Positions 12,676 to 34,883 of a stretch of DNA of 40,489 bases are shown in pieces. Origin of the DNA: a virus (taxonomy: Duplodnaviria; Heunggongvirae; Uroviricota; Caudoviricetes); the IMG/VR virus record IMGVR_UViG_2693429662_000008. One strand, written 5' to 3'. The notes under the pieces are model-generated. The model was given only the letters and a program-made list of their open reading frames with translations. It ran no database searches and was not told where the DNA came from. Numbering within the stretch: position 1 is the stretch's first letter; every line of letters starts with the position of its first letter. Position numbers and translations under genes: made by a program.

Positions 12676-13389
12676 TTGGATAACAAGGAATATCAGAGGC
12701 ACTTTGGAATAATAACTGATGAATTACAAAAGCCTTCCGATAAACATTTGAGAGCATTTACGCAGGTTGCTGACATTAGAAAGTTTGAAATTGAGATGTA
12801 TTGGAAAAGAGCTACGTATTTCTGGACCATTATTGCTATTACTTTTACTGGTTATTTTGCTTTAGCCTCCGCAAATAGCTTTCCGTTCAAAAATGCATTT
12901 TCTCTTTTGCTTTCCAGTATGGGATCCGTTTTTACTCTTTCATGGTTTTTGGTAAACAGAGGTAGCAAATACTGGCAGGAAAACTGGGAAAATCACTTAG
13001 ACCTGATGGAAAACGGCATAACTGGGCCGCTCTATAAAACTGTACTCTCACGACCGTCAGTCGAAGCCAAAAAAAACGCACCTCAACTTGCGAGTACTGA
13101 TAAAGATTTTATCGACAAACATATCACCGGCCCCAAAAAAATATCAGCATCCAAAATTAACCAATTAGTTGCATTTTACTTGCTTGGCATATGGTTAATA
13201 TTAGTAATGACAACAATTACTAACATCTTAAAACTATCATTCTGGAGTGAATCCACGATAGAAGTAGTGTTGAGCGTGGGAGTTTTAATTTGGTCAGCAA
13301 TAGCCACTAGTTTAATGTTTTGTAAGTCAGCCACCTATACAGGAATACAGACTTCAGAGGCAAGAAAACGCTCTTCGAATTTGTTATAA
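12676..13389 (+). CDS. Cargo gene: predicted 4-TM inner-membrane protein of unknown function (possible abortive-infection or exclusion effector)
   Basis: 237 aa from a TTG start preceded by AAGAGGA. Four hydrophobic segments (about residues 50-68, 75-92, 164-185, 197-215) and a charged N-terminal region. AT-rich, opposite strand to the late operon, sits in the S-V moron slot. Confidence 0.7.
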   Translation: MDNKEYQRHFGIITDELQKPSDKHLRAFTQVADIRKFEIEMYWKRATYFWTIIAITFTGYFALASANSFPFKNAFSLLLSSMGSVFTLSWFLVNRGSKYWQENWENHLDLMENGITGPLYKTVLSRPSVEAKKNAPQLASTDKDFIDKHITGPKKISASKINQLVAFYLLGIWLILVMTTITNILKLSFWSESTIEVVLSVGVLIWSAIATSLMFCKSATYTGIQTSEARKRSSNLL

Positions 13390-13502
13390 CGTTGGTGATA
13401 CACTAATAAATTCATTTAAAGCCCTCAGTTTTGGGGGCATGTAATCTCTACTTTCTCACGGAAAGAGAGTCCAGGATGTACACCAGCGCTTGACGCGGAA
13501 AG

Positions 13503-13600
13503 CTAGTCACTGGTGGCAATACTGCGGGTGCGACATAGACTACGCAGGAAGCGCACAATATCCGGAAAGTAGGTTGTGTTTTCGTGTGGGAAAGGATGCC
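13503..13600 (-). pseudogene. Relic of a second gene V 5' end (degenerate duplicate of the V start region)
   Basis: Minus-strand sequence CATCCTTTCCCACACGAAAACACAACCTACTTTCCGGATATTGTGCGC aligns with the real V start CATCCTTCCCAGCATGAAAACACAATCCACTCTTCAGGACATTCAGCGC. ATG is mutated to ACG and there is a frameshift; similarity continues for roughly 90 nt by eye. Confidence 0.45.
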
Positions 13601-13657
13601 GCCTTAGAAGATCGGCGGCAATAGAGGTATGCAGTTCTATCTCTGGTAAAATTTTGT

Positions 13658-14734
13658 TTATTTTCGTTTGCCATAAGACTGGGTTAGAATTGGAGTAATA
13701 TCCTTAGTAAAGATATCTAGTCTTTCTTTTTCGGCTGAGAAAACATACTGTCTGGCTTGAATTACATTTTGCCTACTAATTAAGTTTGACACCTTTTCTG
13801 GTTTGCTTAGTGCAACTTTGGCACCCTTGAATATCAACGCTAAGCCCGGTGATATTGTAAAAATACATCCATTATCAAATGAAAAATCATTTTTTAAGAA
13901 AATAAAAGGAAAATCACTTGAAACAATGGCATATCCCTTAGGTGCTGAGTACAAATATACCCTACAACTACTCTCATTGGTGATTGAGGAAAAAGGTAAC
14001 GCCATAAATCTATGCATCTTTCTAAGTAAGTAAAACATTTCCCTCCGCTGTCCGCTGTCCGCATTAACTAGATACGTTCCTCCCTCCTTTAGTATAGATA
14101 ACAAAGACCTCCATTCAGAACGTGGGATTATGCTCGCACCAGAAGGAATGAGATCCTTATTAGTATTCAGTACTTTCTTGATGGTGGTGTTTATATTTTT
14201 TAATTTTGGCATGGAGCCTTTATCAAAAAAATCATCCATACCTTTGTTTCTATAACATAAAAAACGGGCCATGAAAATTGCCATGTTTTTTAAATCGTTG
14301 AAATCAATCTCATGCAAACCACTACATACTATCGAACGTGCGAATTTTTTTTCCGAAAGCTTGCCAAGCAACCAGTGTCTACGCACGAAATAATGACTAC
14401 CTGAAGCATTTTTAAAATGCTCCTTTAATTTATAAAATTGCCACATTGCGTCTACAAAATCAGGGTAACAATCCTCTAGTATTTTAAAACTGTCCTCAAT
14501 AAAGTTATCTCTATCCCCATCAATATAAAGAGTATGCCTTCGCTCTTGACCACAAATTTTTGTGGCATTAAGAAAAGTAATCCTTTCTTTTATTTGCTTT
14601 TTGGTGGCATCTGTTTTCACAAAACCATAAACAGTATCTTTCCCAGTCTTTGGGTCTTCAGATGTTATTTTAAAATGCCTGATATAAGTTGCAGGCAGAT
14701 AATGCTGATAGTTTTGAAAAGTTCCCTTTGACAT
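13658..14734 (-). CDS. Cargo gene: DUF4238-like protein, candidate single-gene anti-phage defence protein
   Basis: 358 aa from the ATG at 14734 (GGAGG 5 nt upstream); the ORF track TTG at 14746 is an alternative. N-terminal motif HYLPATYIRHF resembles the conserved start of DUF4238 proteins as I recall them (not verified by HMM). AT-rich, and starts 13 nt after the gene S stop. Confidence 0.75.
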   Translation of the reverse strand: MSKGTFQNYQHYLPATYIRHFKITSEDPKTGKDTVYGFVKTDATKKQIKERITFLNATKICGQERRHTLYIDGDRDNFIEDSFKILEDCYPDFVDAMWQFYKLKEHFKNASGSHYFVRRHWLLGKLSEKKFARSIVCSGLHEIDFNDLKNMAIFMARFLCYRNKGMDDFFDKGSMPKLKNINTTIKKVLNTNKDLIPSGASIIPRSEWRSLLSILKEGGTYLVNADSGQRREMFYLLRKMHRFMALPFSSITNESSCRVYLYSAPKGYAIVSSDFPFIFLKNDFSFDNGCIFTISPGLALIFKGAKVALSKPEKVSNLISRQNVIQARQYVFSAEKERLDIFTKDITPILTQSYGKRK

Positions 14735-14747
14735 AGTAACCTCCAAT

Positions 14748-23929: not shown

Positions 23930-25147
23930 TTAATTAGCTTTATCAAGGCGTCCCCCCACCACCATCCGCTTGTAATTTATTGCGAACAACTTAATTTTTT
24001 CAGGGAACTTTGACGCCAAAATTATTGACTTTCTGTCTACATATGAATAAAAGGGCATTGATATCAAAATAGTTATCATCGAAGTTAAGATAAATGTAAC
24101 AAACGCACCAACGGACGGCGACGCAATGTTTTTGTAAACCCAAAAACCAACTATAGATATAACAAATGGATGAAGCAAGTATATTGAAAATGACAACTTC
24201 CCAATAAACAAGACTACATTTTTGCTCATCCCCCTTAAACATCTCCCATTCACAAAGACAGAAGCAATAATCAAAAAAGAACCAAGCGATATTGTAAACT
24301 CTGGCCATTGTATTAATATACCGCATTGAAACTGAAGGTAGAGGTAAAATTCAACCAGATCTTTATACGCAGTGCTCGCCGGTGCATACCCAACAAGATA
24401 AAGGCCAATAAACAACATAAGAAGCGATACAAACTTTCTTAACCGTCCATTATTTTCACTTATCTCGAAAGTTGATAAAAACACACCAGAAAGGAAAAGC
24501 CCATAATAAATTACATTAATACTACCAGACAAAAACATGCAAACAAATGAAATAAACGACAACCAGCGAAGAATGGTCTTGTTCTCACCAAACAGAGATA
24601 TAAATCCGTATACCAATATAGAACCAAAAAACTCAATACTAATAGTCCACAGAACATAGTTATACTTTATATTACCAAAAAGCATAGCGCCAAATGAAGC
24701 ATCCCATATGGCTGACACTATATTCCCATCAAAACTAAACGCAGTCATTAACGGCATTGATGCAGCGGGGCTATCCTTATCCGGAAAAAAGCCCAACAAC
24801 ATTATAAAATAGCAAATAATCACAGATGCTGCTACGGGAACCCCAAGCCTAATGTATCTCTTCAATGCTGATGCTTGTATATAACGTATTTCGTTATTAT
24901 TTTTTTGGCAACTCAGTGACAAAACCAACCCGCTCAAAACAAAGAATAAGCTAACAGCAGATCCCCCCTTATAGAAAAAAGTAAAAGGGCTATTAAATAA
25001 ATTTTCTTGCCACTTGCTATCAAACATACTGCCAGAATGCACCGAAGGTATAAACATTAAAAATGAATGCGATAAAACGACAGCCATGGCTGCCACACCT
25101 CTTATCCCATCAAAGATTTTTACATTATTTCTCTCATTATCACTCAT
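23930..25147 (-). CDS. Cargo gene: membrane acyltransferase, acyltransferase-3 family (O-antigen/polysaccharide acetyltransferase-like; probable lysogenic conversion gene)
   Basis: 405 aa, about ten hydrophobic helices, N-terminal FDGIRGVAAMAVVLSHS motif typical of acyltransferase-3 (Oac-like) proteins. Strongly AT-rich; sits between cos and the replication region where P2 carries tin/old. Confidence 0.85.
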   Translation of the reverse strand: MSDNERNNVKIFDGIRGVAAMAVVLSHSFLMFIPSVHSGSMFDSKWQENLFNSPFTFFYKGGSAVSLFFVLSGLVLSLSCQKNNNEIRYIQASALKRYIRLGVPVAASVIICYFIMLLGFFPDKDSPAASMPLMTAFSFDGNIVSAIWDASFGAMLFGNIKYNYVLWTISIEFFGSILVYGFISLFGENKTILRWLSFISFVCMFLSGSINVIYYGLFLSGVFLSTFEISENNGRLRKFVSLLMLFIGLYLVGYAPASTAYKDLVEFYLYLQFQCGILIQWPEFTISLGSFLIIASVFVNGRCLRGMSKNVVLFIGKLSFSIYLLHPFVISIVGFWVYKNIASPSVGAFVTFILTSMITILISMPFYSYVDRKSIILASKFPEKIKLFAINYKRMVVGGRLDKAN

Positions 25148-29271: not shown

Positions 29272-29781
29272 TCAAATCAGACCAAACGATGCGCCAATAC
29301 CGCTCATGGTATCGACCACGCTAGACATAGCAGGATTAGTCTGCAGACGCGCATGCAGCGCCAGAGCCGACAATGACAACATGCGAATACCAGAGTTAAC
29401 GCTTTCAATCATGTTGTGCTTACGGGCAGTGGTCAGACGCTCATCAGATACCGCACCGCTCGCCAGTTCGCCGAGTTCACGCATTGCGCGCATGACATAA
29501 GACTGCAATTTGTCTTTAGCCAACTCATTAACCGGTACGCATGGCAGGCAATGAATCTGCGCAAGAAAACCATCAACGAGGGTTGAGTCTTCTGTCAGGT
29601 CAGTCAGTAGCCACAATTCAGGCGGCGTAAACTGGTGAGGCTGTTCCGGGTTGAGCTTGTTGCGTAACGTCTGAACATTCATACCCGCGCGCTCGGCCAG
29701 CTTCGCCATATTGTGACGCTGCGCAAAAGCCCGGCACGCTTCGTCATAGTGGGGATGTTTGGAAATCTGAAAATCAAACAT
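29272..29781 (-). CDS. cII: CII-type lysogeny establishment activator (phage 186 CII homologue)
   Basis: 169 aa beginning MFDFQISKHPHYDEACRAFAQRHNMAKLAERAGMNVQTLRNKL (helix-turn-helix), matching 186 CII as I recall it; follows apl. Confidence 0.85.
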   Translation of the reverse strand: MFDFQISKHPHYDEACRAFAQRHNMAKLAERAGMNVQTLRNKLNPEQPHQFTPPELWLLTDLTEDSTLVDGFLAQIHCLPCVPVNELAKDKLQSYVMRAMRELGELASGAVSDERLTTARKHNMIESVNSGIRMLSLSALALHARLQTNPAMSSVVDTMSGIGASFGLI

Positions 29782-29811: not shown

Positions 29812-30075
29812 TTAAGCGCCGATGACGAGTTGAAAACGGGAATGACCCAACGCCTTACGCAACTGCTCTTCTTTCCAGCGGGCGTAATAAATACGAATTG
29901 GGCCACCTGCTTTCTTGCAGCCTTTACGTATGGTGCGGGGTTCAATTGGTACACAAGGGTTGTCGCCGGTTGTCCAGCGGTAAGCGGTGCGTTCAGAAAC
30001 ACCCTCAAGCTCTGCAAATTGTTGCAGAGTAACGATAGGTGCAGGCACTTTGATGATTGCGATTTCAGAAGCCAT
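29812..30075 (-). CDS. apl: Apl excisionase / lytic-promoter repressor (186 Apl, Cox analogue)
   Basis: 87 aa from the ATG at 30075 (MASEIAIIKVPAPIVTLQQFAELEGVSERTAYRW); first gene of the early lytic operon, divergent from cI. Confidence 0.85.
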   Translation of the reverse strand: MASEIAIIKVPAPIVTLQQFAELEGVSERTAYRWTTGDNPCVPIEPRTIRKGCKKAGGPIRIYYARWKEEQLRKALGHSRFQLVIGA

Positions 30076-30162
30076 GTTGCATGATTCCCATTTTGACAAT
30101 GTTTGTAATCAATGGCCTCTGTTTGCCAACTTCTGCCACTGATTGCCCGAATTAGCAACGAT

Positions 30163-30207: not shown

Positions 30208-30783
30208 TTGATACTTGATACTCAGGTGAATAACGACGAGTTACTGGATAGAATCTGTCAAGTATATGGTTTTACTCAAAAAATCCAGCTAGCCCGGCAT
30301 TTCAATATTGCCGCCAGTTCCCTACAAAACCGCTACACGCGAGGCACTGTTTCTTATGATTTTGCCGTACAGTGCGCATTAGAAACCGGGGCAAGCCTAC
30401 TATGGCTTCTTACGGGGCAAGGCTCTCAATATGACGGCAAAAAGTCTCCAACGGATCCGAAAACGATAGACGCCTTCACTCTTAGTGATGGAAAGCTCGA
30501 AGAAAATTCACCATTGAGTATTGATGCTGGTTTCTTTAGTAAGCAAATGTCAAAAGGTATTGCTGTTCGCGCCGATGGAAAGCTGCACTTTATAGAACAA
30601 GATGCCTCACTTTCTGATGGCCTTTGGTTGGTTGATATTGAGGGGGCTACCAGCATCAGAGAATTGACGCTCCTACCCGGTAAAAAGTTACACGTTGCTG
30701 GCGGCAAAGTACCGTTTGAGTGCGGGATAGATGAGATAAAAACGATTGGCCGTGTAGTGGGTGTATACAGCGAGGTTAATTGA
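30208..30783 (+). CDS. cI: CI immunity repressor (186 CI type)
   Basis: 191 aa; helix-turn-helix region (QKIQLARHFNIAASSLQNRYTRG) and conserved C-terminal domain (LSDGLWLVDIEGATSIRELT...GRVVGVYSEVN). TTG start with AAAGGA 7 nt upstream; a GTG at 30226 is an alternative. Confidence 0.85.
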   Translation: MILDTQVNNDELLDRICQVYGFTQKIQLARHFNIAASSLQNRYTRGTVSYDFAVQCALETGASLLWLLTGQGSQYDGKKSPTDPKTIDAFTLSDGKLEENSPLSIDAGFFSKQMSKGIAVRADGKLHFIEQDASLSDGLWLVDIEGATSIRELTLLPGKKLHVAGGKVPFECGIDEIKTIGRVVGVYSEVN

Positions 30784-31787
30784 TGACTGTCCGTAAAAAT
30801 CCGGCTGGCGGTTGGATTTGTGAGCTCTACCCAAACGGTGCAAAAGGCAAACGTATCAGAAAGAAATTCGCTACTAAAGGCGAGGCGCTGGCGTTTGAGC
30901 AGTACACCGTTCAAAACCCGTGGCAGGAAGAAAAGGAAGACAGGCGCACGTTAAAAGAGTTGGTTGATTCATGGTATAGCGCTCATGGCATTACACTGAA
31001 AGACGGCTTGAAACGCCAGCTAGCCATGCACCATGCTTTTGAGTGTATGGGCGAACCACTTACACGCGATTTCGATGCGCAGATGTTTTCCCGCTACCGA
31101 GAAAAACGGTTAAAAGGCGAGTACGCCCGTTCAAACAGAGTGAAAGAGGTATCGCCTCGCACGCTTAATCTTGAGCTGGCCTACTTCCGGGCTGTGTTCA
31201 ATGAGCTAAACCGCCTCGGAGAATGGAAGGGTGAAAACCCACTGAAAAACATGCGCCCATTCCGCACAGAAGAAATGGAAATGGCCTGGCTGACTCACGA
31301 CCAGATTTCGCTACTGCTCGGAGAGTGTAAACGGCATGACCACCCTGATTTAGAAACTGTGGTAAGAATTTGTCTCGCCACTGGCGCACGGTGGTCTGAG
31401 GCCGAGAACCTGAGAAAAAGCCAGCTTGCGAAATACAAAATCACATACACCAACACGAAAGGCAGAAAAAACCGCACCGTTCCAATTAGCAAAGAGCTCT
31501 ATGATTCTCTGCCTGATGATAAAAAAGGCAGGTTGTTTAGTGATTGTTATGGCGCGTTCCGGTCTGCGCTGGAAAGAACAGGCATCGAATTACCGGCAGG
31601 GCAACTTACCCATGTTTTACGCCACACCTTCGCCAGTCACTTTATGATGAATGGTGGTAATATTCTGGTCTTGCAGCGCGTGCTCGGTCATACCGACATC
31701 AAAATGACAATGCGTTACGCACATTTCGCCCCAGACCATCTGGAGGATGCAGTAAGGCTAAACCCACTGAACAACAACAGAGATTAG
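30780..31787 (+). CDS. int: Tyrosine integrase (P2/186 integrase family)
   Basis: 335 aa; C-terminal catalytic motifs HVLRHTFASHFMMNGG and LGHTDIKMTMRYAHF (R/H-x-x-R...Y); start overlaps the cI stop. Confidence 0.9.
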   Translation: MMTVRKNPAGGWICELYPNGAKGKRIRKKFATKGEALAFEQYTVQNPWQEEKEDRRTLKELVDSWYSAHGITLKDGLKRQLAMHHAFECMGEPLTRDFDAQMFSRYREKRLKGEYARSNRVKEVSPRTLNLELAYFRAVFNELNRLGEWKGENPLKNMRPFRTEEMEMAWLTHDQISLLLGECKRHDHPDLETVVRICLATGARWSEAENLRKSQLAKYKITYTNTKGRKNRTVPISKELYDSLPDDKKGRLFSDCYGAFRSALERTGIELPAGQLTHVLRHTFASHFMMNGGNILVLQRVLGHTDIKMTMRYAHFAPDHLEDAVRLNPLNNNRD

Positions 31788-31797
31788 CCCCATTAAG

Positions 31798-33261
31798 TCA
31801 TTTGCCGAGCATCTCTCTTAAATCTTGAGCCCAATGCGTATCGTCAGATTGGATCGTTCCTTCAACATCAGTAAGCAGTTTTTGCTCAAGAATTGTCTCG
31901 GCATTTCGACTCTGGCTAAAGTATCTTACCGTTTCGGCAAAGTCCCAATTCTCATCTGCAAGCAGGCGCGGCTGGAAAGAATGACAGTAGATTGCAGCTA
32001 TATCTTTACCCATAAAGTCAAAATCAGAAATCAATTCGCAAATTTTCATATCACGTGCAAATTCGATCTGAGGGCCATGCAAGGTTTCATATCCAATATG
32101 AATTATTGTTGATTCTCCAATCGGAGCCTGCTTTACAGCCTGAACAAGTACCCTTTTTATATCTTTTGCCTTTTTATCGACAGACTCATCAGCGAGACAA
32201 ATCCATTTTGCGCAGAAAGGCATTTCTATCTCATCAATGAATACATTTATTGTACTAAGTTCATCATTGCTAAAAGTGCATAACTTTGCGTTGCAAACCA
32301 TTGTATAACTTCCAAACGGGTCATACTGGTCATCTAATAAGGAATTTAATTGAGGAGAAGGATATTTCACATGCCACTTTCTTAAGTGGTTATCCACCCG
32401 TTCCATATCAATTAAGTTAGCCTGAACCAAAATATCATCGCTCTCACATACTGCAATCTTACCTTTCACAAGATGATCAGAGCCGTAAATTTTTGCTACA
32501 GCACCGAGAAACACATCGATACGCGTTTTTACTATTTCAGTTTTGAAAATCACATCAAAAAAAACTGGCTTATGGTATCGAGTAATCAATGGTCGAGCCA
32601 TTTCCCACCGCTTCAACCACTCCGCCCTTTCTTCTTCTGAGTACTGAGTCACCTTTGCTAATCGCTTGCACTCAACATAAAAAATATCAGTGCCTTTAAC
32701 AACTTTGAGGTCTGGTGTTTTATGAGCTCCTGTTTCTGGAATGAACTCAACTTCCCAGCCATTTTTCAAATAGCAGATAGCCACAACCAACTCAAACAAA
32801 ATGGAATCAGGCTGGTTGATTGTCTTAACAAGCAAGTCATTTAATTTGGATTCAATACCTTTGACCTGCTTCAACTTTTCGCTATGTTCACCGATAACTG
32901 CGAAAAAATGCCAAATTCTTGACGACTGAGCTGGCTCATCTACTGTTGGGCGATCAGCCAAAGATTCAACTAAGTACAAATACCATGCAATCCAGTCATC
33001 ATAGAATGCCAGGCGTGCATCTTTCTCATGGAAAGAAACGTCAGATTTTCCTGTGAAAAGGCGCTCCGACATTTCGCGGAAGTAAGCCAAAACCGCCCCA
33101 CGACGCTCAACCCATTTATCTTCACCCATTACATCAATAAACCAACGGTATGCTGTTTTTATCTCTTTGACTAATGGTGCATCATGTCTATGATTGAAGC
33201 GTTCAAAAAATGCAGCATACTCATCTTCAACACTCTGATTTTTGGTATTTTTTTCACCCAT
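31798..33261 (-). CDS. Cargo gene: large protein with a PD-(D/E)xK nuclease motif, candidate defence/abortive-infection nuclease
   Basis: 487 aa from the ATG at 33261 (AGGTGGA upstream; the ORF-track start at 33294 is an alternative). Motif FELVVAICYLKNGWEVEF...TPDLKVVKGTDIFYVECKRL fits the E...PD...(D/E)xK pattern. No P-loop seen. AT-rich; lies between int and the distal att core, convergent with int. Confidence 0.75.
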   Translation of the reverse strand: MGEKNTKNQSVEDEYAAFFERFNHRHDAPLVKEIKTAYRWFIDVMGEDKWVERRGAVLAYFREMSERLFTGKSDVSFHEKDARLAFYDDWIAWYLYLVESLADRPTVDEPAQSSRIWHFFAVIGEHSEKLKQVKGIESKLNDLLVKTINQPDSILFELVVAICYLKNGWEVEFIPETGAHKTPDLKVVKGTDIFYVECKRLAKVTQYSEEERAEWLKRWEMARPLITRYHKPVFFDVIFKTEIVKTRIDVFLGAVAKIYGSDHLVKGKIAVCESDDILVQANLIDMERVDNHLRKWHVKYPSPQLNSLLDDQYDPFGSYTMVCNAKLCTFSNDELSTINVFIDEIEMPFCAKWICLADESVDKKAKDIKRVLVQAVKQAPIGESTIIHIGYETLHGPQIEFARDMKICELISDFDFMGKDIAAIYCHSFQPRLLADENWDFAETVRYFSQSRNAETILEQKLLTDVEGTIQSDDTHWAQDLREMLGK

Positions 33262-33505
33262 CGTGATTCCACCTAGCTTATGCGGTTTATGCATTCAAGA
33301 TTAACTAACTTGCATGTTATCATTTTTGATATCAGGCAAGTGTTAGTCACGCTATAAAGGCTAGGTTGCCGTTTAAAGGCAATATGATAAGTGGCGATAA
33401 AGTGGCGGTAGAAATGGCTGATAATGTCTAATCACTGGCAAACGCTGGCCATTTATGTCAATGATAAATAAAGCAAACTATTGATTTTCGGTTGTTCAGG
33501 TAGGA

Positions 33506-33554
33506 ACTCATAATCGCTTGGTCGCTGGTTCAAGTCCAGCAAGGGCCACCAAAT
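33506..33554. repeat. Prophage attachment core (distal copy, partial tRNA 3' end)
   Basis: Direct repeat of 1605-1653 with one mismatch; sequence upstream of it is unrelated to the tRNA 5' half, so this is a partial tRNA duplicate typical of integration into a tRNA gene. Confidence 0.85.
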
Positions 33555-34301: not shown

Positions 34302-34784
34302 ATGTTAGTTAGTAAAAGCAACGGATTTAACGCTAGCGCAGTTTTGGGTAGTGGAAGTTATAATGAAAATAAATCTTCTAAACACATGGAGCTACTAGCT
34401 CATAGTATTTTAAAATTAATTTGTAAGGAAGCTGCATCAGAGACGTATCGCGGTGCTCTTGAAACTTTACAAAAAATGATGTCTGAATGTATATATCAAG
34501 AAGGCAACGCCTTTGTCATTATGGGAGCTGGAGAACAATTAAAACGTATTAAATATGAAGTTGGTGAAAATAACTTAAAGGTATTCAACGTACACTTTAA
34601 TAATAATCACGAGTTAGTTAGTTCTGGTGAGCCTGACGTAATATGTTTAAGCAAGCAGGTCTGGGAAAATCTTCTCATTAAACTAAAGCTGGAAAACAAT
34701 GAAAATGTGTTTTCTGAAACTAAAAAATTATCGAATAAAAATAATGCCGATCAGTTTTTTGAATGCGCTAAAAGAAATGAATAG
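34302..34784 (+). CDS. Hypothetical protein, AT-rich islet
   Basis: 160-aa ORF in a strongly AT-rich region outside the prophage; no recognisable motif. May correspond to the ypjC-like gene of the K-12 ileY neighbourhood (memory only). Confidence 0.45.
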   Translation: MLVSKSNGFNASAVLGSGSYNENKSSKHMELLAHSILKLICKEAASETYRGALETLQKMMSECIYQEGNAFVIMGAGEQLKRIKYEVGENNLKVFNVHFNNNHELVSSGEPDVICLSKQVWENLLIKLKLENNENVFSETKKLSNKNNADQFFECAKRNE

Positions 34785-34883
34785 AACCTTTTCGATAATA
34801 TAAGAAAAAGTGATTTTCATGTTGGTTTACTTAAGCCAAGTAGTACGCGTAGTGTTATTTTAGAAACGCCGCCAAATGTCTGT

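Follow-up and report, generated by a model that had tools for sequence, protein, structure and literature searches.

The cargo gene and its cassette

The stretch of DNA analysed here (the window; 40,489 nt, Caudoviricetes, IMG/VR record IMGVR_UViG_2693429662_000008) contains a 186-like prophage that carries, between its integrase gene and its distal attachment (att) site, an AT-rich gene for a putative PD-(D/E)xK nuclease. This cargo gene (31798..33261, minus strand; stop codon 31798-31800) encodes 487 amino acids plus a stop codon, has a guanine plus cytosine (GC) content of 0.400 versus 0.509 for the whole prophage, and is convergent with int, the gene for the tyrosine integrase of the prophage (30780..31787, plus strand), the int stop at 31787 and the cargo stop codon being 10 nt apart. 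As the 1.72-kb interval between int and attR in which the gene lies falls within the att repeats, it is inside the prophage. An original prediction, made without database searches, had placed a 487-residue AT-rich open reading frame (ORF) convergent to int in the ~1.7 kb before the distal att site, and the coordinates, GC content and RefSeq start confirm this. A longer ORF of 498 amino acids (31798..33294, minus strand) would begin at the first ATG, at 33294. The start at 33261 is favoured because an AGGTGG that resembles a Shine-Dalgarno sequence lies upstream (33269..33274, minus strand; 7-nt spacer to the ATG), because RefSeq places the start of the protein (WP_052935640.1, 'hypothetical protein') at the same position, and because the N-termini of the homologues, in an alignment of 62, have start points comparable to that of the 487-residue version.

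The gene is delivered in a 1.6-kb AT-rich cassette (31766..33391, GC 0.398) that has no DNA homology to phage 186 and stands in place of 186 orf69. Homology to phage 186 ends at 31765, in the last codons of int, and restarts at 33392, in the attP arm; the counterpart interval of phage 186 holds only orf69, of 252 nt, and the cassette one gene with ~130 nt of upstream sequence. Two tandem sequence matches to the consensus of the 186 Int arm-type sites, YAYCGCCAYTY, are present at 33389..33410 (minus strand), which puts the cargo gene on the phage side of the attP arm. That the gene is prophage cargo at the att-proximal end, as originally proposed, is therefore borne out, and the slot has the properties of a P2/186 cargo hotspot, being variable, compositionally distinct and differently filled in related phages. 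No terminator-like hairpin was found between the int and cargo stop codons (31785-31800), and phage 186 has its predicted lysogenic-operon terminator on the far side of attP, so that transcripts from cI-int may run antisense into the cargo gene.

A homologue occupies the identical place, in the same orientation, in a 186-like prophage of Salmonella (locus L008, 7001-8461). The Int, cI and cII proteins of the two prophages are 97-98% identical, with synonymous divergence (dS) of 0.19-0.31, whereas the cargo proteins are only 66% identical and their synonymous sites are saturated (proportion of synonymous differences, pS, 0.77; nonsynonymous divergence, dN, 0.28). The two cargo genes are therefore anciently diverged alleles of one family residing in near-identical backbones, a pattern in the aligned sequences that indicates cassette (allele) exchange at a hotspot rather than co-divergence. 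A 2026 survey ranks the int-att interval of P2-like prophages as a minor hotspot for defence, with 3% of their systems, and most of the genes lacking a known function that were tested from P4 hotspots do defend (PMC13586616).

The prophage is bounded by a 49-nt direct att repeat, with one mismatch between the copies. The proximal copy, attL (1605..1653, plus strand), is the 3′ part of a transfer RNA (tRNA) gene with anticodon CAT at 1575-1650; the distal copy, attR (33506..33554, plus strand), is a duplicated tRNA 3′-end that RefSeq lists as a 105-nt 'tRNA-OTHER'. At the right end of the prophage, int is preceded by cII (29272-29781, minus strand), apl (29812-30099, minus strand) and cI (30208-30783, plus strand), and the stretch from cII to int has 85% DNA identity to the matching region of phage 186. 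Beyond attR (34302-35675) there is a host pseudogene of the YpjCB family, broken into a DUF5507 and a DUF5508 ORF, and after it the ypjA autotransporter gene.

A nuclease core between two conserved domains

The original prediction noted a motif, E...PDL...FYVECK, consistent with a PD-(D/E)xK active site, and suggested structure prediction as the means to confirm the nuclease fold. An AlphaFold2 model built on an alignment of 62 homologues (predicted local distance difference test 90.1; predicted template modelling score 0.90) has a helical N-terminal domain (residues ~7-150), a core (151-262; 32476..32811, minus strand) and a C-terminal alpha/beta region (263-487). The core has the alpha-beta-beta-beta-alpha-beta order of the PD-(D/E)xK superfamily, so the absence of a fold, which would have spoken against the prediction, was not encountered. 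The motif residues, E157 in FELVV, P183-D184-L185 in TPDL and F194-Y195-V196-E197-C198-K199 in FYVECK, are all present, are invariant across the 62 homologues (37-85% identity) and fall in the model on the core elements expected of them, with E157 in the first core helix, D184 just before the second strand and both E197 and K199 within the third strand, the canonical arrangement. The codons of the predicted catalytic residues are at 32791-32793 (E157), 32710-32712 (D184), 32671-32673 (E197) and 32665-32667 (K199), all on the minus strand, and these four residues are still invariant in a wider homologue set that extends down to 21% identity. As judged from the alignments, the putative catalytic tetrad is intact and strictly conserved, and the cargo protein presumably cleaves DNA.

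Structure searches with the full model returned AspBHI, MspJI, NgoMIV, FokI, BsmI, Can2, SduA and McrC. These matches were lost when residues 262-487 were modelled and searched alone and therefore belong to the part of the protein that bears the motif. Matches to Mrr_cat (PF04471) were obtained for 19 of the 62 homologues, but all are weak and below threshold (best E = 0.014; best family-wide score 17.9 bits against a gathering threshold of 21 bits), and the cargo protein itself matches no Pfam family at E values up to 1. Together, these results confirm the nuclease fold, with a core that is Mrr-like but lies outside Pfam Mrr_cat.

The flanking regions, which the original prediction could not assign, are still unassignable after Pfam, structure and domain searches. 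The N-terminal domain (residues 7-150; 32812..33243, minus strand) is all-helical, with conserved residues W50, R53, D89, R115 and G124, and has no detectable relative, family or fold match. The C-terminal alpha/beta domain (residues 263-487; 31801..32475, minus strand) matches the nuclease core in degree of conservation, with Q378 and H388 invariant family-wide and E392, R403 and E443 nearly so. No convincing solved homologue was found for it in the search with residues 262-487 alone. Several of its conserved residues are placed by the model at the end of a strand, in the following loop and at the start of the next helix, positions at which alpha/beta folds usually bind their ligands, and we infer that Q378, H388, E392, R403 and E443 could form a ligand pocket. 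A scan of the sequence for a Walker A motif, GxGxxG or a hydrophobic segment found none of the three, the absence of Walker A being in agreement with the original reading that the protein lacks a P-loop.

A widespread family outside curated databases

No match to the cargo protein was found in Pfam or NCBIfam, even at E = 1. In PHROGs, the sole match is PHROG 37220 (E 1.7e-46, residues 34-480), which has no assigned function; from this full-length match one learns only that the family is carried by phages. A profile of the 62 homologues gave, against PDB sequences, only a chance match to AphA (E 1.9), a fold search of BFVD returned nothing at E ≤ 0.001, and the family is not among the entries in the supplements of Rousset 2022. 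The suggestion that the protein is possibly undescribed stands, since the curated family and defence models of Pfam, NCBIfam and PADLOC-DB 2.0.0 give no match to it, and the search for a characterised phage or housekeeping protein that it matches with confidence, a result that would have contradicted the prediction, found none.

Exhaustive profile searching collected 1070 clusters (50% identity) at E ≤ 0.001, of which 226 have E ≤ 1e-30. Family members are nearly all 430-510 amino acids long and align over their full length. When ten atypical members were scanned with Pfam as possible variant architectures, no swapped domains came to light. Source databases label the proteins nearly always as 'hypothetical' and in a few cases as 'Restriction endonuclease', 'PDDEXK family nuclease' or 'transposase'. 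The last of these labels, attached to homologues from Rhizobium and Agrobacterium, was rejected; none of the transposase models of NCBIfam and Pfam gives a match, and there is a weak TnsA-like match in only 2 of the 62 members. RefSeq applies it, without model support, to both of the intact homologues that adjoin DNA phosphorothioation genes (see below). The present allele occurs at ≥99% DNA identity in 42 of 5426 complete Escherichia coli genomes, full-length in 39 of them, and the family is present on 66 plasmids, 54 of which are conjugative, and in Entero-, Vibrio-, Pseudomonas-, Rhizobium- and Bacteroidota-type genomes.

The positions of the homologues differ from one carrier to the next. 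In the P2-like phages 899 and GMG73, a distant member occupies the Z/fun slot, between the tail-fibre assembly and sheath genes; in Rac-like prophages and lambdoid prophages of Proteus, the homologue follows the replication genes (a moron position), in Proteus on the opposite strand; and in an integrative element of Pseudomonas it adjoins the integrase gene. Elsewhere, a homologue is located, as a gene of its own, alongside a complete Hachiman (HamAB) pair; between GAPS4 and three deoxycytidine triphosphate deaminase genes, in one island; two genes from an OLD/GajA-like ATPase gene, in a Vibrio-type prophage; and together with AbiEii, GmrSD and a Cas4-like nuclease, in a Bacteroidota island. 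Homologues are also found beside a pair of AAA-ATPase and helicase genes and beside a pair encoding an AAA-ATPase and an S8 peptidase. The 106 neighbours at 19 species-representative loci include Gabija twice and Hachiman once, and integrases, transposases and helix-turn-helix regulators recur. The family has spread widely by horizontal transfer and is sited, repeatedly, in phage defence hotspots and defence islands.

No methyltransferase gene adjoins the cargo gene in the window, none recurs among the neighbours of the homologues examined and, across these contexts, there is no recurring partner gene of any kind; the family is therefore, nearly always, a solo gene. In Arcticibacter (Bacteroidota; locus L012, 4953-8371), the homologue shares 4 nt with the end of an unannotated gene for 683 amino acids, which is itself preceded by two more unannotated genes. 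Given this overlap, the nuclease may, in Bacteroidota, be part of an operon rather than solo.

Proposed role and alternatives

From the genomic contexts, a defence role seems likely for the cargo gene, in line with the original suggestion of a single-gene defence or abortive-infection system, and we consider that it probably encodes a defence nuclease, uncharacterised so far, that acts as a single gene and does not depend on a methyltransferase. The protein would be a stand-alone, metal-dependent DNA endonuclease with a Mrr-like PD-(D/E)xK core, carried by the prophage as lysogenic-conversion cargo that would protect the lysogen from other phages or from incoming mobile DNA. As the gene has no methyltransferase, immunity gene or nucleoside triphosphatase (NTPase) partner, discrimination of self from non-self must reside in the polypeptide, and the phages, plasmids and islands that carry the family must themselves tolerate the nuclease. 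In the simplest model, the protein would be an orphan restriction-type endonuclease with accessory domains that would limit cutting to DNA unlike that of the host and carrier. In a type IV-like version of this model, somewhat preferred within the single-gene defence reading, these domains would steer the nuclease to DNA features absent from the host and from the carrier phage, candidates being modified or otherwise unusual DNA. Protection may be by direct restriction or by abortive infection.

Several observations weigh against a single-gene defence nuclease of this type. Searches of the cargo protein revealed no recognised domain for binding DNA or its modifications, and none of the known readers of modified DNA (SRA, PUA/EVE, winged helix, inactive EndoIII and sulfur-binding domains), and the protein is acidic, with a predicted isoelectric point of 5.3 overall and 4.8 for the C-terminal domain, which is unusual for a module that reads DNA. 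The defence-protein hidden Markov models of PADLOC-DB 2.0.0 give no matching family at E values up to 1; literature searches by accession and PHROG identifier retrieved neither experiments on the family nor papers that name it; and, upstream of the cargo gene, no minus-strand promoter reached the threshold of a consensus scan. The association with defence islands, although repeated across many independent loci, is a qualitative one. The first two of these points, the lack of a known modified-DNA reader and a conserved, acidic C-terminal domain, favour an auto-inhibited nuclease that is released by an infection cue.

Such a trigger-activated nuclease, of the abortive-infection type, is a possible but distinctly less probable explanation. 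It would be inactive in the lysogen, its C-terminal domain would bind a phage protein or a small nucleotide-like ligand produced in the course of infection and, once released, it would degrade DNA indiscriminately, resulting in cell death or arrest. The conservation of Q378 and H388, and of E392, R403 and E443, fits a pocket better than it does a variable DNA-reading surface, and the acidity of the C-terminal domain and the solo-gene organisation are also consistent with this explanation. A signal-producing partner, such as a cyclase, is however nearby in none of the contexts, and in a sensor of phage proteins one would expect variation, which the C-terminal domain does not show. A still more tentative proposal is that the family constitutes a class of one-polypeptide immune nucleases in which a C-terminal pocket reads either DNA chemistry or an infection ligand and so gates the Mrr-like nuclease. 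Phosphorothioate status would be one candidate DNA feature for such a reader, given the subclade located adjacent to Dnd and Ssp genes. If true, a pocket-gated nuclease would be a new module for self/non-self recognition across phages, plasmids and defence islands of Proteobacteria and Bacteroidota.

That subclade consists of two distant, 70%-identical homologues on conjugative plasmids of Alphaproteobacteria (Rhizobiaceae) that adjoin two different DNA phosphorothioation systems, one positioned 27 bp after a gene for a TIGR04172 protein ('DNA phosphorothioation-associated DGQHR protein 1'), in an apparent operon divergent from dndBCD, and the other beside sspABCD-like genes. The family could, accordingly, be a restriction or sensing partner of such systems, the solitary form acting by the phosphorothioate status of DNA. 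We give this little credence; tblastn searches with Dnd and Ssp proteins against all 48 loci found no such genes in the other loci, and there are none in the window, the other alphaproteobacterial homologues (five further plasmid loci) have unrelated neighbours, no sulfur-binding domain was detected in the cargo protein, and co-location within defence islands suffices to explain two cases. Because just two independent cases were found, a specific link to phosphorothioation is kept only as a minor rival. The loci concerned are L019 (4153-7293), L021 (357-9293) and L049, and a syntenic copy of the ssp-adjacent homologue in Sinorhizobium is broken up. An improbable explanation is that the gene is a selfish mobile nuclease, similar to a homing endonuclease or an addiction element, that would cut empty sites in related phages or plasmids with no benefit to the host. 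A free-standing nuclease ORF at differing sites in differing phage backbones, with alleles that have diverged far more than the flanking backbone, has this appearance, but the protein greatly exceeds the known homing endonucleases in size and contains two additional conserved domains, the family occurs also on chromosomes, in defence islands remote from phage genes, and the Salmonella slot is not empty but filled by the 66%-identical allele. A function in the phage life cycle, as an accessory for excision or integration (compare the PD-(D/E)xK protein XisH) or as a nuclease for recombination or host takeover, is suggested by the location of the gene next to int and attR and is very unlikely, as phage 186 integrates and excises by means of Int and Apl without such a gene, homologues are located far from integrases (between tail genes, following replication genes or in islands outside phages), and the gene is AT-rich and is transcribed against the lysogenic operon.

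If the single-gene defence reading is correct and the cargo gene does defend, a widespread single-gene system has been missed by the present annotation tools, the int-att slot of 186-like prophages gains a function, and the C-terminal domain provides a handle on how an orphan nuclease discriminates without a methyltransferase or NTPase. As the protein is small and self-contained, the hypothesis is directly testable.

Other AT-rich islands of the prophage

Two further AT-rich islands are present in this prophage. One, at 12676-14746 (GC ~0.38-0.39), is positioned among tail and baseplate genes and has two divergent genes, one encoding a 362-residue DUF4238 protein (13658-14746, minus strand; Pfam score 27.7 bits, cut-off 27) and the other a 237-residue 8xMP octameric membrane protein (12676-13389, plus strand). 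PADLOC gave no match for this island. DUF4238 is the domain present in a P2-hotspot defence system that Rousset et al. reportedly validated. The other island, at 23930-25147 (GC 0.36), separates the portal gene from replication gene A, in a hotspot of the old/tin type, and encodes a 405-residue Acyl_transf_3 protein (E 3.9e-25), probably an acetyltransferase of O-antigen or surface sugars that would alter the phage receptor.

Comparison with known systems

Like the accessory cargo of P2 and 186 prophages (old, tin, Z/fun), the gene is an AT-rich accessory gene in a variable prophage slot, but its protein is unrelated in sequence to Old, Tin and Fun and to the hotspot systems that PADLOC models. 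Shedu (SduA) and Hachiman HamA are likewise PD-(D/E)xK defence effectors. The cargo protein differs from Shedu in having no DUF4263 match, and from Hachiman in having neither a HamA match in Pfam nor a match in PADLOC, and HamB, the helicase that HamA needs, is absent here. CdiA-CT and other polymorphic nuclease toxins have a delivery domain and an adjacent immunity gene, a combination that the cargo gene lacks. Enzymes of type IV with an Mrr-type catalytic domain (PF04471) have the same core fold and D...ExK residues and no cognate methyltransferase; unlike them, the cargo protein has its nuclease domain in the centre rather than at the C-terminus, has no winged-helix N-domain and has two extra conserved domains. 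END nucleases, exemplified by END-PaCF1, are orphan restriction-endonuclease-like proteins that act alone, are found in defence islands without a methyltransferase, and obtain their specificity from a fused non-catalytic domain (PMC12191111); with Mrr and MspJI, they are the precedents for the type IV-like model. A nuclease as the likely defence gene of a prophage hotspot is of a kind already known, and genes without a known function in such slots are expected by specialists to have a defence role (PMC13586616). What is new here, a prior description being possible, is the family itself, large, uniform and outside Pfam, NCBIfam and PADLOC, together with its domain composition and a conserved C-terminal domain that lacks a solved relative.
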